A DNA stretch of 64,000 nt from sequence record OR999189.1; one strand, 5' to 3'. Made by a program: the position numbers and the translations under genes. Under the pieces are notes generated by a model that did not search any database, was not told the origin of the DNA, and worked only from the letters and a program-made list of their open reading frames with translations. Source of the stretch: Enterobacteria phage P922. This document shows positions 4,290 to 64,000 of the stretch, one piece after another (position 1 is the first letter of the stretch; each line of letters begins with the position of its first letter).

Positions 4290-4362
4290 TGGGAATTAGC
4301 CAAGTTGGTAAGGCACTGGATTTTGATTCCAGGATGCAAAGGTTCGAGTCCTTTATTCCCAG
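4290..4362 (+). tRNA. tRNA-Gln (anticodon UUG)
   Basis: Cloverleaf: acceptor TGGGAAT/ATTCCCA, anticodon loop TTTTGAT, T-arm GGTTCGAGTCC. Confidence 0.85.
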
Positions 4363-4363
4363 C

Positions 4364-4450
4364 GCGAGAATGGTCAAATTGGTAAAGGCACAGCACTTAA
4401 AATGCTGCGGAATGATTTCCTTGTGGGTTCGAGTCCCACTTCTCGCACCA
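4364..4450 (+). tRNA. tRNA-Leu (anticodon UAA), long variable arm, CCA encoded
   Basis: Acceptor GCGAGAA/TTCTCGC, loop CTTAAAA, T-arm GGTTCGAGTCC. Confidence 0.85.
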
Positions 4451-4455
4451 AATTT

Positions 4456-4529
<74 letters not shown>

Positions 4530-4539
4530 ATTTAATTTA

Positions 4540-4612
4540 CTCCGTGTAGCTAGTTTGGTAGAGCGCCTGATTTGGGATCAGGAGGTCCAAGGTTCAAATC
4601 CTTGTATGGAGA
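4540..4612 (+). tRNA. tRNA-Pro (anticodon UGG)
   Basis: Anticodon stem CCTGA/TCAGG with loop TTTGGGA; T-arm GGTTCAAATCC. Confidence 0.75.
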
Positions 4613-4614
4613 CT

Positions 4615-4704
4615 GGAGGCGTGGCAGAGTGGTTTAATGCACCGGTCTTGAAAACCGGCAGTCGCTCCGGCGACTCATAGGTTCAAATCCTATCGCCTCC
4701 GCCA
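4615..4704 (+). tRNA. tRNA-Ser (anticodon UGA), long variable arm
   Basis: Acceptor GGAGGCG/CGCCTCC, loop CTTGAAA, T-arm GGTTCAAATCC, CCA encoded. Confidence 0.85.
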
Positions 4705-4709
4705 GTTTT

Positions 4710-4785
4710 GCTGATTTAGCTCAGTAGGTAGAGCAACTCACTTGTAATGAGAAGGTCGGCGGTTCGATTCCGTTAATCAGCACCA
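4710..4785 (+). tRNA. tRNA-Thr (anticodon UGU)
   Basis: Acceptor GCTGATT/AATCAGC, loop CTTGTAA, T-arm GGTTCGATTCC. Confidence 0.85.
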
Positions 4786-4786
4786 A

Positions 4787-4861
4787 GGCCCTGTAGCTGG
4801 AAGGTTCAAGCAAGCGACTCATAATCGCCAGATGGTGGTTCAATTCCACCCAGGGCCACCA
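4787..4861 (+). tRNA. tRNA-Ile (CAU anticodon, probably lysidine-type) or Met
   Basis: Acceptor GGCCCTG/CAGGGCC, loop CTCATAA, T-arm GGTTCAATTCC. Confidence 0.75.
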
Positions 4862-4870
4862 AATTAATTT

Positions 4871-4957
4871 GGGGAGTTATCCCGTAGAGGTAGCGGTGTG
4901 GACTGTAAATCCATTGTCATTGCGACTCGGGTGGTTCGACTCCATCACTCCCCACCA
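4871..4957 (+). tRNA. tRNA-Tyr (anticodon GUA), long variable arm
   Basis: Acceptor GGGGAGT/ACTCCCC, loop CTGTAAA, T-arm GGTTCGACTCC; not among the eight T4 tRNAs I recall. Confidence 0.75.
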
Positions 4958-4961
4958 ATTT

Positions 4962-5036
4962 GGATGTGTAGCTCAATGGCAGAGCGATCGCCTGTTAAGC
5001 GATTGGTTATAGGTTCGAATCCTATCACGTCCGCCA
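4962..5036 (+). tRNA. tRNA-Asn (anticodon GUU)
   Basis: Anticodon stem ATCGC/GCGAT with loop CTGTTAA; T-arm GGTTCGAATCC. Confidence 0.75.
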
Positions 5037-5040
5037 AATC

Positions 5041-5116
5041 CGAGGCATAGCTCAGAAGGAAGAGCAAGGACCTTCTAAGTCCTAGGTCGTAGGTTCGATC
5101 CCTACTGCCTCGACCA
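5041..5116 (+). tRNA. tRNA-Arg (anticodon UCU)
   Basis: Acceptor CGAGGCA/TGCCTCG, loop CTTCTAA, T-arm GGTTCGATCCC. Confidence 0.85.
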
Positions 5117-13379: not shown

Positions 13380-13705
13380 TGACAGATACGCAACTTTTCG
13401 AATATCTTTATTTTTCGCCAAAAACTATTAAAAATAAATTGGTGAATCATTTTGAAATTTTGGCAAATAACAACGTCTTGAGCGAATTTTATCCCAAGCA
13501 ATACAAATTACAAAAAGGTGTATTCAAAGGATGCAGAGTTTTGTGCACTGCTCCTAATGCAAGATTAATGAATAAAATTCCATATTTTACCATGGAATTT
13601 ATTGATGGACCTTTTAAAGGACTAATCACCCAAAGTTTAATGGCATATGATTCTGAGCCATTTTTAATTAAAGAACAATCTTGGATAAATTTATTTTCTA
13701 ATTGA
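13376..13705 (+). CDS. hypothetical protein (coupled to upstream gene via ATGATGA overlap)
   Basis: 109 aa ORF, start overlaps the preceding stop. Confidence 0.45.
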
Positions 13706-13713
13706 GAGGTTAT

Positions 13714-14076
13714 ATGAAAGCATACCAAATTCTTGAAGGCACACATAAAGGTACTATTTATTTTGAAGATGGTATTCAAGCACGAATTATTGTTTCTAAA
13801 ACCTTTAAAGAGGATTCTTTTGTAGACCCAGAAATTTTCTATGGTTTGCATGCCCGTGAAATTGAAATTGAAACACAACCTACAGTTAAAATCGAGGGTG
13901 GTCAACACCTGAACGTTAACGTTCTGCGTCGTGAAACTCTGGAAGATGCAGTTAAGCATCCGGAAAAATATCCGCAGCTGACCATCCGTGTATCCGGTTA
14001 TGCAGTTCGCTTTAACTCTCTGACTCCGGAACAGCAGCGCGACGTTATCGCTCGTACCTTTACTGAGAGTTTGTAA
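13714..14076 (+). CDS. autonomous glycyl radical cofactor GrcA/YfiD-like protein
   Basis: C-terminus ...[63 protein letters not shown] with RVSGY glycine-radical motif. Confidence 0.85.
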
Positions 14077-14297
14077 TGGCAAAGATAATTATTGAAGGTT
14101 CTAAAGATGTGCTAAATGCTTTCGCCGAGTGGTTTAGTAATTCAGGCGAACAGCAATTTAATGAAGCATGGAACATGGGTGATATTAGTGGAATTTATCC
14201 TACGACAGAAATTTCTGTTCAGGGATATGGCATTCATGAACCTATTCGTTTAGTTGAATATGATTTGGGTACTGGTGAGGAAGTAAAATATGATTGA
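14076..14297 (+). CDS. hypothetical small protein
   Basis: 73 aa ORF, coupled start. Confidence 0.4.
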   Translation: MAKIIIEGSKDVLNAFAEWFSNSGEQQFNEAWNMGDISGIYPTTEISVQGYGIHEPIRLVEYDLGTGEEVKYD

Positions 14298-14556
14298 AGA
14301 TATTAAGGGTTATAAGCCACATACTGAAGAGAAAATCGGTAAAGTGAATGCTATCAAAGATGCTGAAGTTCGTTTAGGACTTATCTTTGACGCTTTATAC
14401 GATGAATTCTGGGAAGCACTAGATAATTGCGAAGACTACGAATTCGCAAAGAATTATGCTGAAAGCCTCGATCAGCTAACTATTGCTAAAACGAAACTCA
14501 AAGAAGCCAGTATGTGGGCTTGTCGTGCTGTGTTCCAACCAGAGGAAAAATATTAA
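14290..14556 (+). CDS. hypothetical small helical protein (vs.4/Acb2 candidate by position only)
   Basis: 88 aa ORF in the regB-denV interval. Confidence 0.4.
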
Positions 14557-14893: not shown

Positions 14894-15355
14894 ATGACTA
14901 TCAACACAGAAGTTTTTATCCGTCGAAATAAGCTCCGTCGTCACTTTGAGTCGGAGTTTCGTCAAATTAACAATGAGATTCGTGAGGCATCAAAAGCAGC
15001 AGGGGTCTCATCGTTTCATCTAAAATATTCTCAGCATCTTCTTGATCGTGCAATTCAACGGGAGATTGATGAGACATATGTTTTTGAATTATTCCACAAA
15101 ATAAAAGACCATGTTTTAGAAGTTAATGAATTCCTGAGTATGCCTCCGCGTCCTGACATTGACGAGGATTTTATTGATGGGGTTGAATATCGTCCTGGGC
15201 GTTTAGAAATCACAGATGGAAATCTTTGGCTTGGATTTACAGTTTGTAAACCTAATGCGAAGTTCAAAGACCCGTCGCTTCAGTGCAGGATGGCAATTAT
15301 TAACAGTCGTCGTTTACCAGGAAAGGCTTCTAAAGCAGTAATTAAAACTCAATGA
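14894..15355 (+). CDS. regB: RegB site-specific endoribonuclease
   Basis: 153 aa; matches recalled T4 RegB length and N-terminus MTINTEVF... Confidence 0.8.
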   Translation: MTINTEVFIRRNKLRRHFESEFRQINNEIREASKAAGVSSFHLKYSQHLLDRAIQREIDETYVFELFHKIKDHVLEVNEFLSMPPRPDIDEDFIDGVEYRPGRLEITDGNLWLGFTVCKPNAKFKDPSLQCRMAIINSRRLPGKASKAVIKTQ

Positions 15356-24024: not shown

Positions 24025-24339
24025 ATGGAGGTAATGATGTTATACTCAAAGGCTCGTGAAATTTACGAAACTAAAATTAAAGAAGCAGTATTTAAGTTCG
24101 CAACGACAATGCGATGGACAAATGACTGGGAGTATTCAAAAAATCATAAGAAGCCCATGGTGACAAGAAAGGCTCATATGTTAGTGTTAATAGACCGTGA
24201 GCAGATTAAAGCCCGAGAAGCCCTCCAGAATCATAAAAAGGCTGCCTTTGAATGGTTTATGGATAACACTGCTCCTGAGACTAAGAAAGCAGTGAGCGCA
24301 TGGTTCAGTGGAAAAAATTGTGAAAGAAGTTTCTTTTAG
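24025..24339 (+). CDS. hypothetical protein
   Basis: 104 aa ORF. Confidence 0.45.
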   Translation: MEVMMLYSKAREIYETKIKEAVFKFATTMRWTNDWEYSKNHKKPMVTRKAHMLVLIDREQIKAREALQNHKKAAFEWFMDNTAPETKKAVSAWFSGKNCERSFF

Positions 24340-41935: not shown

Positions 41936-42122
41936 CATTAATGATGAATTCATAGCAAACATTGATTATACCGAAGAAGATTCTAGATATGTTGGAATAA
42001 TTTATATTACATCAAAAACAGCACAAGGCGTTGTTTGCATGGCTGAATTTGATGAATACTTTTTAGATTATGATGATATGATAGAATGGTCTAAAAGATA
42101 CATTAAAAGGAATCTTTTGTGA
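41907..42122 (+). CDS. hypothetical protein
   Basis: ATG 41907 after AAGG; 71 aa. Confidence 0.35.
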   Translation: MHTVKFSTFDINDEFIANIDYTEEDSRYVGIIYITSKTAQGVVCMAEFDEYFLDYDDMIEWSKRYIKRNLL

Positions 42123-43801
42123 AGAATTTTAAACTAAACCGAGTTAGGTATCAAAATATAATGTCAGTAGGTGGAAATCCTATTGACATTCAATTAGATA
42201 AGGTTCAAAAAACTCTTATTACTGGACGAAATGGCGGTGGTAAGTCTACTATGTTAGAAGCCATCACATTTGGGCTTTTTGGCAAGCCATTTCGTGATGT
42301 AAAGAAAGGTCAATTAATAAACAGCACAAATAAGAAAGAACTTTTAGTTGAACTGTGGATGGAATATGATGAGAAAAAGTACTATATCAAAAGAGGACAA
42401 AAACCGAATGTTTTTGAAATCACCGTTAACGGTACACGTCTTAATGAATCTGCCAGCAGTAAAGATTTCCAAGCAGAATTTGAACAGCTTATCGGAATGT
42501 CATATGCCAGTTTCAAACAGATCGTCGTACTCGGCACGGCTGGATATACCCCTTTTATGGGCCTATCCACTCCTGCAAGAAGAAAACTCGTCGAAGACCT
42601 GCTCGAGGTAGGAACATTAGCTGAAATGGATAAGCTTAATAAAGCACTAATACGTGAATTAAATTCACAGAACCAAGTGCTTGATGTTAAAAAAGATAGT
42701 ATTATCCAGCAAATTAAAATATATAATGATAACGTTGAACGCCAGAAAAAATTAACTGGTGATAACCTTACTCGTCTGCAGAATATGTACGATGATTTGG
42801 CAAAAGAAGCTAGAACGCTAAAATCGGAAATAGAAGAAGCTAATGAAAGATTAGTTAATATTGTTTTGGATGAAGACCCGACTGATGCATTTAATAAAAT
42901 CGGTCAAGAAGCATTTTTAATTAAATCAAAAATTGACTCGTATAATAAAGTCATTAATATGTATCACGAAGGTGGATTATGTCCAACCTGTTTGTCACAA
43001 TTAAGTTCCGGTGATAAAGTTGTTTCTAAAATTAAAGATAAAGTTTCTGAATGTACGCATTCATTTGAACAGCTTTCAACACATCGTGATAATTTAAAAG
43101 TTCTTGTTGATGAATACCGAGATAATATTAAAACCCAGCAGACGTTGGCAAATGATATTCGCAATAAAAAGCAATCCTTAATCACGACGGTAGATAAAGC
43201 TAAAAAGGTTAAAGCGGCTATAGAAAAAGCATCATCTGAGTTTATTGACCATGCTGATGAAATAGCACTGCTTCAAGAAGAACTTGATAAAATTGTTAAG
43301 ACAAAAACTAATTTAGTAATGGAAAAATACCACAGAGGAATTTTGACTGACATGCTCAAAGATTCTGGTATTAAAGGCGCTATTATTAAAAAGTACATTC
43401 CATTATTTAATAAGCAGATTAACCATTATCTTAAAATAATGGAAGCGGATTATGTGTTTACATTAGATGAAGAATTTAATGAGACAATTAAATCCCGTGG
43501 TCGTGAAGATTTTAGTTATGCTTCATTTAGTCAAGGTGAAAAAGCACGAATTGATATTGCTCTTTTATTTACTTGGCGTGATATTGCTGAAAAAGTTTCA
43601 GGTGTTAAAATAAACACACTAATTCTTGATGAAGTTTTTGATTCAGCAACCGATGTTGAAGGTGTAAAAGCTATTTCAACTATTTTAGATAGTTTAAAAA
43701 ATACTAATGTTTTTGTTATTTCACATAGAGACCACGACCCGCAAGCATATGGTCAGCATCTTCAAATGAAGAAAGTTGGTCGATTTACTGTAATGGTTTA
43801 A
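42119..43801 (+). CDS. 46: recombination ATPase gp46 (Rad50/SbcC-like)
   Basis: 560 aa; Walker A GRNGGGKST, coiled coil with CPTC zinc hook, C-terminal ATPase motifs; GTG start. Confidence 0.9.
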   Translation: MKNFKLNRVRYQNIMSVGGNPIDIQLDKVQKTLITGRNGGGKSTMLEAITFGLFGKPFRDVKKGQLINSTNKKELLVELWMEYDEKKYYIKRGQKPNVFEITVNGTRLNESASSKDFQAEFEQLIGMSYASFKQIVVLGTAGYTPFMGLSTPARRKLVEDLLEVGTLAEMDKLNKALIRELNSQNQVLDVKKDSIIQQIKIYNDNVERQKKLTGDNLTRLQNMYDDLAKEARTLKSEIEEANERLVNIVLDEDPTDAFNKIGQEAFLIKSKIDSYNKVINMYHEGGLCPTCLSQLSSGDKVVSKIKDKVSECTHSFEQLSTHRDNLKVLVDEYRDNIKTQQTLANDIRNKKQSLITTVDKAKKVKAAIEKASSEFIDHADEIALLQEELDKIVKTKTNLVMEKYHRGILTDMLKDSGIKGAIIKKYIPLFNKQINHYLKIMEADYVFTLDEEFNETIKSRGREDFSYASFSQGEKARIDIALLFTWRDIAEKVSGVKINTLILDEVFDSATDVEGVKAISTILDSLKNTNVFVISHRDHDPQAYGQHLQMKKVGRFTVMV

Positions 43802-63348: not shown

Positions 63349-64000
63349 ATGAAACTGTCTAAAAATCAAATTCGTAAAATTACACGTCGTCTAGAGCATA
63401 CTCAGGCATCTGCAAAAAGACGTTCTAAAGATTTTAACTTAGACTTCAATTACATTAAGAACATTTTAGATCAAAAAGTTTGTGCTTACTCGGGAGAACC
63501 TTTTGATAATCGTATTGAAGGAGAGAAATTATCATTAGAACGTTTTGATAATAACGTTGGATACATTAAAGGGAATGTTATTGCAGTAAAGAAAAAGTAT
63601 AATACATTTCGTTCTGATTATACTTTAGAAGAGTTGATTGAAAAGCGTGATTTATTTGCTTTGCGAATTGGTCGTTCATCTGCGAAAAAAGTTCATAAAC
63701 TAAATTTAGATGAAAAGAAATGGGCTAAAATCAAAAAGACTTATAATCAAATTAAAGCTATACAGAAAAAACGTGAAAACCGAATTGAGCACATTTCTCA
63801 GCTTTCTAAATCAAAACAAACTTCTGACGTTAAGCTAACGATTATAGCACTCAAAGCTCGTATTGATGGTTCTCGTATAGCAGAAGGCGCTGAAGTTGTT
63901 AAATTGAACGTTCTTCTTAAAGGCTCTGATTGGAAAACTGTGAAAAAGTTGTCAGAAGCAGAAATGCAATATGATATGTGTGATAAAATTATTCAGGGTG
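63349..64000 (+). CDS. Srd-position protein, 3' end outside window; contains a degenerate HNH-like segment
   Basis: ATG 63349 after promoter; open to window end; CAYSGEPF ... FDNNVGYIKGNVIAV. Confidence 0.4.
   Translation, partial: MKLSKNQIRKITRRLEHTQASAKRRSKDFNLDFNYIKNILDQKVCAYSGEPFDNRIEGEKLSLERFDNNVGYIKGNVIAVKKKYNTFRSDYTLEELIEKRDLFALRIGRSSAKKVHKLNLDEKKWAKIKKTYNQIKAIQKKRENRIEHISQLSKSKQTSDVKLTIIALKARIDGSRIAEGAEVVKLNVLLKGSDWKTVKKLSEAEMQYDMCDKIIQG

Follow-up and report, generated by a model that had tools for sequence, protein, structure and literature searches.

A stretch of 64,000 nucleotides from Enterobacteria phage P922 (sequence record OR999189.1), hereafter the window, contains the gene vs.6, which encodes a small glycyl-radical protein homologous to GrcA (YfiD) of Escherichia coli. 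The gene is a mosaic: most of its 3′ half is identical, nucleotide by nucleotide, to grcA of E. coli, and its 5′ half is a deeply diverged relative of the same gene. We consider it very probable that a whole grcA-like gene was captured by a phage long ago, that its glycyl-radical domain was later overwritten by the grcA of the host via homologous recombination, and that the protein functions in the rescue of host pyruvate formate-lyase (PFL, or PflB) that oxygen has cleaved. An earlier interpretation of the same DNA by a model that saw only the letters and a list of open reading frames (ORFs), here called the sequence-only reading, had already claimed a recent exchange of the 3′ half with host grcA; the identity now found, which is higher than protein conservation gives, and a breakpoint in composition bear this out.

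In a codon alignment, positions 13897-14066 of the window are identical to E. coli grcA without interruption (170/170 nucleotides), and residues 61-120 of the vs.6 protein are 100% identical to residues 68-127 of E. coli GrcA (60/60), the RVSGY motif included, as the sequence-only reading had stated for the C-terminus. When 5426 complete E. coli genomes were searched by blastn, grcA matched positions 13894-14076 at 97.8% in every genome, whereas the 5′ half of vs.6 gave no alignment in any of them. The 5′ breakpoint lies between gene nucleotides 178 and 186 (window ~13891-13899), both in the window and in the Klebsiella phage JD18 (see below), and upstream of the tract the nucleotide identity to grcA is at background level. 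The junction had been expected at about 13880; it exists, ~15 nucleotides further downstream. At the 3′ edge the phage reads GAG AGT TTG and E. coli GAA AGC CTG, the differing bases being 14067, 14070 and 14071. The region taken to be host-like, 13880 to 14076, does contain the tract, but the tract is internal to the gene and has an edge before the stop codon that had gone unremarked. In a triplet test, in which informative sites were counted with one host gene and the homologue from phage CC31 as references, 63 sites in gene nucleotides 1-183 went with CC31 and 7 with E. coli, versus none with the phage and 33 with E. coli in nucleotides 184-353 (Fisher p 2e-20).

When the whole 64 kb were compared with the E. 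coli genomes by megablast, the vs.6 tract was the only part that matched every chromosome. Beside the match to grcA each genome gave a second match, which is probably pflB since the tract shares a 35-nucleotide exact word with enterobacterial pflB. The pflB gene is, over 183 nucleotides, only ~75-80% identical to the window (JD18 versus E. coli pflB, 83%), and the donor is therefore grcA rather than pflB or tdcE. One further match was listed, that of window positions 4868-4960 (tRNA-Tyr) at 90.5% to the E. coli O111:H8 plasmid NZ_CP077546.1, where the sequence is annotated as tRNA-Tyr. The region from 21 to 64 kb of the window had zero megablast matches to E. coli genomes, though nrdD lies there.

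The composition changes at the same place. In windows of 100 nucleotides the GC content is 0.27-0.31 upstream versus 0.44-0.50 within the tract; the tract as a whole has a GC content of 0.50, equal to that of the corresponding tract in E. coli grcA (0.50), versus 0.32 in the 5′ half of vs.6. Measured against 57-codon windows of the phage's own ORFs, in which GC at third codon positions (GC3) has a mean of 0.24 (standard deviation 0.07), the tract with a GC3 of 0.44 falls into the top 1%. All five leucine codons are CTG (8% of phage leucine codons) and all three proline codons CCG (14% of phage proline codons). The richer GC and the CTG and CCG codons on which the sequence-only reading was based were, accordingly, confirmed by counting. 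The background set of codons included two ORFs on the minus strand, of which at least the ATG-started antisense ORF 13489-13959 is spurious; the effect on the percentiles is small. Two more ORFs of the window have phage-atypical 57-codon windows, 24025-24339 and 42161-43801 (+); neither has a megablast match to E. coli. ORF 42119-43801 (560 amino acids) is, by size and position, probably gene 46.

The 5′ half had been called phage-like, which is correct in that it is AT-rich; it is not an unrelated phage sequence, however, but a deeply diverged N-terminal half of GrcA. This part of the vs.6 protein shares 28-35% of its amino acids with bacterial GrcA and is 7 residues shorter. BLASTP against the N-terminal half of E. 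coli GrcA gave 35% identity over 40 amino acids (E 2e-6), and hhalign of 12 phage against 10 bacterial N-terminal halves gave a probability of 97.1% and an E of 5.5e-11 over 60 columns, end to end. By eye, intermediate phage sequences (e.g. L101) bridge the phage and the bacterial N-terminal halves. By these alignments vs.6 is a homologue of the whole grcA gene and not a domain fusion, with an anciently diverged 5′ half and a 3′ part that is essentially new host sequence.

GrcA-like genes were found in 1463 phage records. The T-even homologues compared all have 120 codons, which yields ungapped alignments. T4 differs from the window at 7 of 183 positions in the 5′ part and at none of 170 in the tract, and the Mosigviruses (RB69, L087, L088) at 23 of 183 and 0-2 of 170, respectively. 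For L088, whose tract is identical to E. coli grcA at 170/170 positions, the difference between the two parts (23/183 versus 0/170) has a Fisher p of 1.6e-7; for T4 versus L088 (18/183 versus 0/170) p is 6e-6. In the 5′ half the two genera are thus about 10-12% apart. Among codons specifying the same residue in the window and in RB69, 15 of 55 differ in the 5′ part and 1 of 56 in the tract. The comparison with other T-even genomes that had been suggested from the sequence alone shows that the mosaic is not particular to P922: T4 and more than 600 Tequatrovirus and Mosigvirus records share it. In the T4 reference NC_000866.4, vs.6 (63557-63919) has an in-tract change of CGT to CAT (Arg73 to His, LRHETLED), of which T4 record OL964735.1 and 15 other coliphage alleles have no trace.

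In Jiaodavirus, represented by the Klebsiella phages JD18, RCIP0102 and Merci, the 5′ half of the gene is of the phage type, with a GC content of 0.37 and an identity of 72-74% to the window, and the tract, which starts at the same codon as in the coliphages, is 94-96% identical to grcA of Klebsiella pneumoniae versus 84-88% to that of E. coli, with a GC content of 0.56 (K. pneumoniae 0.59). It encodes the Klebsiella-specific LLDAVEH where E. coli reads LEDAVKH, and JD18 carries the K. pneumoniae base at 17 of 21 diagnostic sites. With K. pneumoniae as the host reference, JD18 has 60 phage and 9 host sites upstream and 4 phage and 35 host sites in the tract (p 1e-15).

The homologues of Karamvirus (CC31, PG7 and relatives growing on Enterobacter and Cronobacter) have a 3′ half that shares 51-53 of the 60 residues, is 76-81% identical to E. 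coli grcA and at most 82% to that of any sampled bacterium, and has a GC content of 0.39-0.42; by these values they appear to be unconverted, with a phage-like 3′ half. In Pseudotevenvirus (RB16 type) and Slopekvirus (KP15 type) (L094-L100) the C-terminal 60 amino acids are identical or nearly identical to the E. coli or the Klebsiella type, Slopekvirus having LLDAVEH, and the nucleotide identity is 79-84% to E. coli grcA and does not exceed 85% for any of the bacteria sampled. Older exchanges that have drifted would fit this pattern, as would protein selection alone.

Two groups of IMG/VR sequences were rejected as candidates. L111, Yersinia-like with a nucleotide identity of 0.91, had been considered a case of host tracking and is a full-length bacterial grcA on a viral-labelled contig; L152-L162, PflB-like and considered phage spare parts, are full-length or cut bacterial pflB genes. 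Both probably stem from contamination or from host DNA flanking prophages. Viral-labelled contigs with bacterial grcA or pflB can mimic phage spare-part matches in protein-based searches. On the bacterial side, grcA of K. aerogenes NCTC10006 (LR134122.1) is annotated as truncated owing to one surplus A in an A-run (GAAAAAATACC); dropping the A gives a normal GrcA of 127 amino acids, and a sequencing error is the probable cause.

One alternative is that grcA was captured once, long ago, and that its 3′ half has been kept identical to the host gene with no recombination, by purifying selection on the protein and convergent selection for optimal codons. The 60 C-terminal residues are indeed strongly constrained, being identical in 15 of 16 coliphage alleles (with a further R-to-H change in the T4 reference record), and the RB16-type Pseudotevenviruses have the same 60 residues with a nucleotide identity of only ~83%, which indicates that protein selection alone can keep residues. 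What it leaves at the nucleotide level, however, is just these ~83% in the RB16-type phages and 82-93% in bacteria: in a set of 80 bacterial grcA genes, those of 12 further species specify the C-terminal 60 amino acids of E. coli without a change, and their nucleotide identity to E. coli is in the latter range, one Escherichia sp. (98.9%) excepted. The identity of the tract is therefore not due to protein conservation. In Salmonella, grcA shares 58 of the 60 residues and 84% of the nucleotides with E. coli; across the Enterobacteriaceae the synonymous sites of the tract are not frozen. The window, by contrast, is identical at all 170 positions and carries the E. coli base at all 21 tract sites that separate E. 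coli from K. pneumoniae grcA. Since the tract copies non-optimal E. coli codons too (GTA, GCA, TAT, CAT, AAG), convergent codon optimization, which together with purifying selection would have had to hold the 3′ half host-like, cannot explain it. Klebsiella synonymous variants are present in Klebsiella phages, and the synonymous differences between the window and RB69 are concentrated in the 5′ part. We regard an origin without recombination as highly improbable; it is effectively refuted by the nucleotide-identity and synonymous-site tests. An assembly chimera or host DNA contaminating one sequence would account for the abrupt change in composition and for nothing else, and its probability is negligible because 645 independent phage records, T4, T2 and RB69 among them, have the same in-frame mosaic at the same position with an identity of 90% or more. 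Identity by itself gives no direction, and phage DNA might have overwritten the 3′ ends of grcA in E. coli (and Klebsiella). Between E. coli and K. pneumoniae, however, grcA is 0.848 identical in the 5′ part and 0.876 in the tract, so that the host gene has diverged evenly along its length; this, together with the host-like GC of the tract and its outlying position within the phage, gives the direction host to phage. Both the E. coli and the K. pneumoniae tract have the GC and the codon usage of a host gene, none of the 5426 E. coli genomes lacks the tract, and the unconverted phage homologues are AT-rich. A transfer from phage to host is, in our estimate, extremely improbable.

How many imports there were is less certain. 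An E. coli-type and a Klebsiella-type tract cannot share one event, so that two imports are the minimum. In the coliphages the tract is far younger than the split of Tequatrovirus and Mosigvirus, and therefore either was imported separately or was imported once and spread from phage to phage. Such a single import, with recombination between Tequatrovirus and Mosigvirus thereafter and the Klebsiella tract as a separate case, is possible, although we rather doubt it. T-even phages exchange DNA freely when they infect a cell together; both genera have 375G and 378T, the older-looking bases of the 3′ edge; the divergence of the tract from E. coli in 16 coliphage alleles (0-7 differences, only one of them non-synonymous) is comparable to the divergence of the 5′ half within a genus; and an E. 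coli tract is kept in phages from Salmonella or Yersinia, which suggests that conversion by the host is rare. But the flanks are genus-specific (12% in the 5′ half; 379T versus 381A at the 3′ edge), and a transfer between phages would need to involve the same narrow tract; the tract ends differ within Tequatrovirus (201/204; 375/378/379); and a copy of the host gene is present in every infected cell and a heterologous phage is not. Both histories, one import followed by spread and repeated imports within the coliphages, are compatible with the sequences.

The edges also vary among the coliphage alleles as a whole, at 201/204 on the 5′ side and at 375/378/379/381 on the 3′ side, as would be seen if several conversion tracts that end at different places lay within an older host-derived layer. 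Protein selection could contribute at the 3′ edge too: the last phage codons encode ESL as in the host, and CC31 ends in KEM. Two variants seen in the phages, 240C and 213G, also occur in the K-12/C600 and O157 alleles of E. coli; this was not counted as evidence of several E. coli donors, for many other species have these bases at the third-codon positions concerned. Another Escherichia donor of the more divergent alleles (IME537, Killian) was rejected, none of 84 bacterial sequences fitting better than E. coli. Decay of the tract toward AT is suggested by two Mosigvirus alleles, in which 7 of 7 changes are from GC to AT; over 16 alleles a hand count gave ~14 changes from GC to AT versus 8 from AT to GC, which is not significant, and the idea was dropped.

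For the host-derived mosaic we propose the following mechanism. An ancestor of the T-even phages would have captured an entire grcA-like gene long ago, the 5′ half of which drifted to ~30% amino acid identity. The 3′ part would then have been overwritten, as a patch of gene conversion, by homologous recombination with chromosomal fragments carrying the grcA of the resident host in the infected cell, and this at least twice, by E. coli grcA in the Tequatrovirus and Mosigvirus lineages and by grcA of a Klebsiella in Jiaodavirus. The tract would extend only as far as phage and host gene are still similar enough to pair, up to what may be called a homology cliff: upstream of EGGQHLNV the genes would be too different, and downstream each refreshment would restore pairing for the next. 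A sharp 5′ edge at the same codon in different genera could arise in this way because unrefreshed sequence drifts and refreshed sequence stays pairable. The 3′ limit may be set by the overlap of the vs.6 stop with the vs.5 start, and converted alleles may persist by virtue of their exact fit to PflA and PflB of the host. A mechanism induced by a break is unsupported: none of the genes annotated around vs.6 in related phages encodes a homing endonuclease, though no direct search for one was made. One may go further and regard the 3′ half of vs.6 as a standing target, in which the grcA of each new enterobacterial host overwrites the domain up to a fixed cliff and so matches it to the local PflA and PflB; this extension is tentative, and we stop just short of calling it probable. 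If it holds, the tract records the long-term host of a phage lineage and is a natural, measurable case of conversion from host to phage in phages that destroy host DNA.

Several points speak against these interpretations. Recombination from host to phage is inferred from the comparison of sequences. T4 degrades cytosine-containing host DNA early in infection, and such events should be rare. The 5′ junction lies within ~5 nucleotides of the start of the similar block, which is tighter than simple homologous exchange predicts. The Jiaodavirus tract is not 100% identical to the single K. pneumoniae allele with which it was compared; either the true donor is another one or the event is older. Tequatroviruses isolated from Salmonella, Yersinia or Citrobacter hosts still have the E. 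coli-type tract, and conversion must therefore be rare relative to host switching. The vs.6 protein scores 154.6 bits against NCBIfam TIGR04365 (residues 20-120 aligned), under the GrcA equivalog cutoff of 170 bits, a shortfall explained by the diverged N-terminal half; E. coli GrcA scores 233.9 bits and the CC31 homologue, likewise under the cutoff, 157. Finally, the function is carried over from the T4 orthologue.

With respect to function, PMC8683613 states, citing work of Knappe and co-workers (Wagner et al., 2001, BBRC), that both YfiD of E. coli and Y06I of T4 obtain a glycyl radical from PFL-AE and restore PFL that has been cleaved by oxygen. Y06I is vs.6 (PMC8683613; RefSeq annotation of T4), the YfiD-like spare part that the sequence-only reading had attributed to T4. 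Because only one or two residues separate the protein of the window from that of T4, this function can with high confidence be carried over to it by orthology. Host PflA would place the radical on Gly95, and vs.6 would dock on a PflB whose C-terminus oxygen has removed; with PFL activity restored, the fermentative production of acetyl-CoA, ATP and formate could continue during infection at low oxygen. Gly95 aligns with Gly102 of GrcA and Gly734 of PflB; the radical role of the RVSGY glycine is described in PMC8683613.

The sequence-only reading had proposed that the protein may repair NrdD or host PflB damaged by oxygen. The PflB half of the proposal agrees with a strong match of the vs.6 C-terminus to PflB residues 697-759 (E 5e-26); for NrdD there is no significant similarity, the best BLASTP alignment of vs.6 with the NrdD C-terminus (RRTCGYLG...) having an E of 6.3 and not lying at the glycine. 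That vs.6 is nevertheless a spare part for phage NrdD, or for both NrdD and PflB, is a notion favoured by the presence of this glycyl-radical enzyme in the same window and by the fact that NrdD is also cleaved by oxygen at its glycine. We consider it very unlikely, for the domain is identical to that of host GrcA, and the tract follows host grcA, as expected when the partners are host PflA and PflB. A role of vs.6 in nucleotide metabolism was a speculation of Nolan et al. (2006; PMC1524935), whereas the published biochemistry, as given in PMC8683613, is rescue of PFL. The link between vs.6 and NrdD is probably metabolic rather than direct repair, since class III ribonucleotide reductase draws its reducing power from formate, a product of PFL.

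The ORF at 13714..14076 is assigned as the Tequatrovirus gene vs.6 (Y06I). It lies among unrelated small genes, has a stop codon and a Shine-Dalgarno-like sequence of its own, and encodes a small glycyl-radical protein that stands alone and is not the C-terminus of a large enzyme (Table 1). The gene is 97.5% identical to T4 vs.6 (9 of 363 nucleotides differ), the protein differing by two residues from the RefSeq record and by one from another T4 record, and many Tequatrovirus genomes match the region at 96-98% identity. The orthologue is annotated as vs.6 in RB69 and T4, the RefSeq product name in T4 being "autonomous glycyl radical cofactor GrcA". Membership in the GrcA/YfiD family, made up of small proteins of about 14 kDa, was judged by NCBIfam TIGR04365/InterPro IPR011140; the protein matches Pfam Gly_radical PF01228 with 67.2 bits (cutoff 22.2) and GrcA in PDB 6owr with an E of 4.6e-42.

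Table 1. Features of vs.6 and the second glycyl-radical gene in the window
Feature	Position	Strand	Remarks
vs.6 (T4 Y06I) coding sequence	13714..14076	+	120 amino acids + stop; phage GrcA/YfiD homologue; from the ORF list
Shine-Dalgarno-like GAGAGG, 4 nucleotides before the vs.6 ATG	13704..13709	+	read from the sequence by eye
Phage-type 5′ part of vs.6, codons 1-61, AT-rich	13714..13896	+	GC 0.32, GC3 0.16
Probable host-derived tract in vs.6, glycyl-radical domain	13897..14066	+	corresponds to E. coli grcA gene nucleotides 205-374
Radical-glycine codon GGT in RVSGY	13996..13998	+	by alignment to GrcA and PflB
3′ edge of vs.6: last base of Glu118, Ser-Leu-stop	14067..14076	+	differs from E. 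coli at three synonymous positions
nrdD, anaerobic ribonucleotide reductase, 605 amino acids	32051..33868	+	other glycyl-radical protein in the window; C-terminus RRTCGYLGNPNERGF

The gene lies between a vs.7-like and a vs.5-like ORF (the latter at 14076..14297), its TAA stop sharing the final A with the ATG of the next gene (TAATG). On the 3′ side follow acb2 (vs.4), regB, vs.1 and vs; on the 5′ side are ipII/ipIII-like ORFs and a tRNA cluster. The vs.4 orthologue at 14290-14556 (+) is labelled anti-CBASS protein Acb2 in phage P8, and the regB orthologue is at 14894-15355 (+). An antisense ORF of 197 amino acids at 13489-14082 (-), which overlaps vs.7 and vs.6 and has the most atypical codon usage in the window, is almost certainly not a gene. 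The tRNA cluster at 4290-5116 comprises 10 genes (Gln, Leu, Gly, Pro, Ser, Thr, Met-CAT, Tyr, Asn, Arg). T4 has eight tRNA genes, by which count Tyr and Asn would be extra in the window.

The closest known proteins are T4 Y06I and E. coli YfiD/GrcA (PDB 6OWR), which like the vs.6 protein of the window are small and stand-alone, have RVSGY at the C-terminus and a homologous N-terminal half; from bacterial GrcA it is set apart by the low identity and shorter length of that half and by its score below the equivalog cutoff. The C-terminal glycyl-radical domains of PflB and TdcE have the same fold and motif, and with pflB the tract has the exact word mentioned above in common. What is added here to the published work on Y06I and GrcA is evolutionary, a host tract with host-specific counterparts, and not biochemical. 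Nolan et al. (2006; PMC1524935) report of vs.6 no more than that it matches Gly_radical in Pfam and is conserved in six T4-like genomes, and PMC2993671 makes general remarks on lateral transfer in T4 relatives. A published description of the nucleotide-identical tract or of its host-specific versions was not found in a literature search that did not include the primary Y06I paper or the T4 genome review, so that an earlier remark is possible.

Intragenic recombination between phage and host is known from psbA and psbD of cyanophages (Zeidner et al., 2005; Sullivan et al., 2006, PMC1484495). There, too, the phage copy of a host metabolic gene swaps segments with the host, as seen by patchy G+C and segment-specific phylogeny, and the gene product replaces a damage-prone host component. 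Unlike in psbA/psbD, the vs.6 tract is a single, sharply bounded block that is 100% identical to one named host species and covers one domain, the other half of the gene being deeply diverged; the same boundary is found with different hosts, and only the direction host to phage was seen. The case also differs in that it concerns T4-type coliphages, which degrade host DNA.

The gene vs.6, its biochemistry and intragenic exchange between host and phage are all already known; new is the mosaic in T4-type phages and, with it, an evolutionary mechanism in the best-studied of all phages, a perfect copy of 170 host nucleotides in T4-type genomes having a Klebsiella-type counterpart at the same boundary. 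If the interpretation is correct, T-even phages, though they degrade the DNA of the host, recombine with its chromosome where homology exists, and a metabolic gene carried by a phage can in this way stay adapted to the host enzymes with which its product must work. The tract would then be a simple sequence marker of the long-term host of a lineage (E. coli type versus Klebsiella type), synonymous markers introduced into host grcA would provide a ready assay of the rate of conversion from host to phage, and exchange of the psbA type would be extended from marine cyanophages to the phages of enterobacteria.

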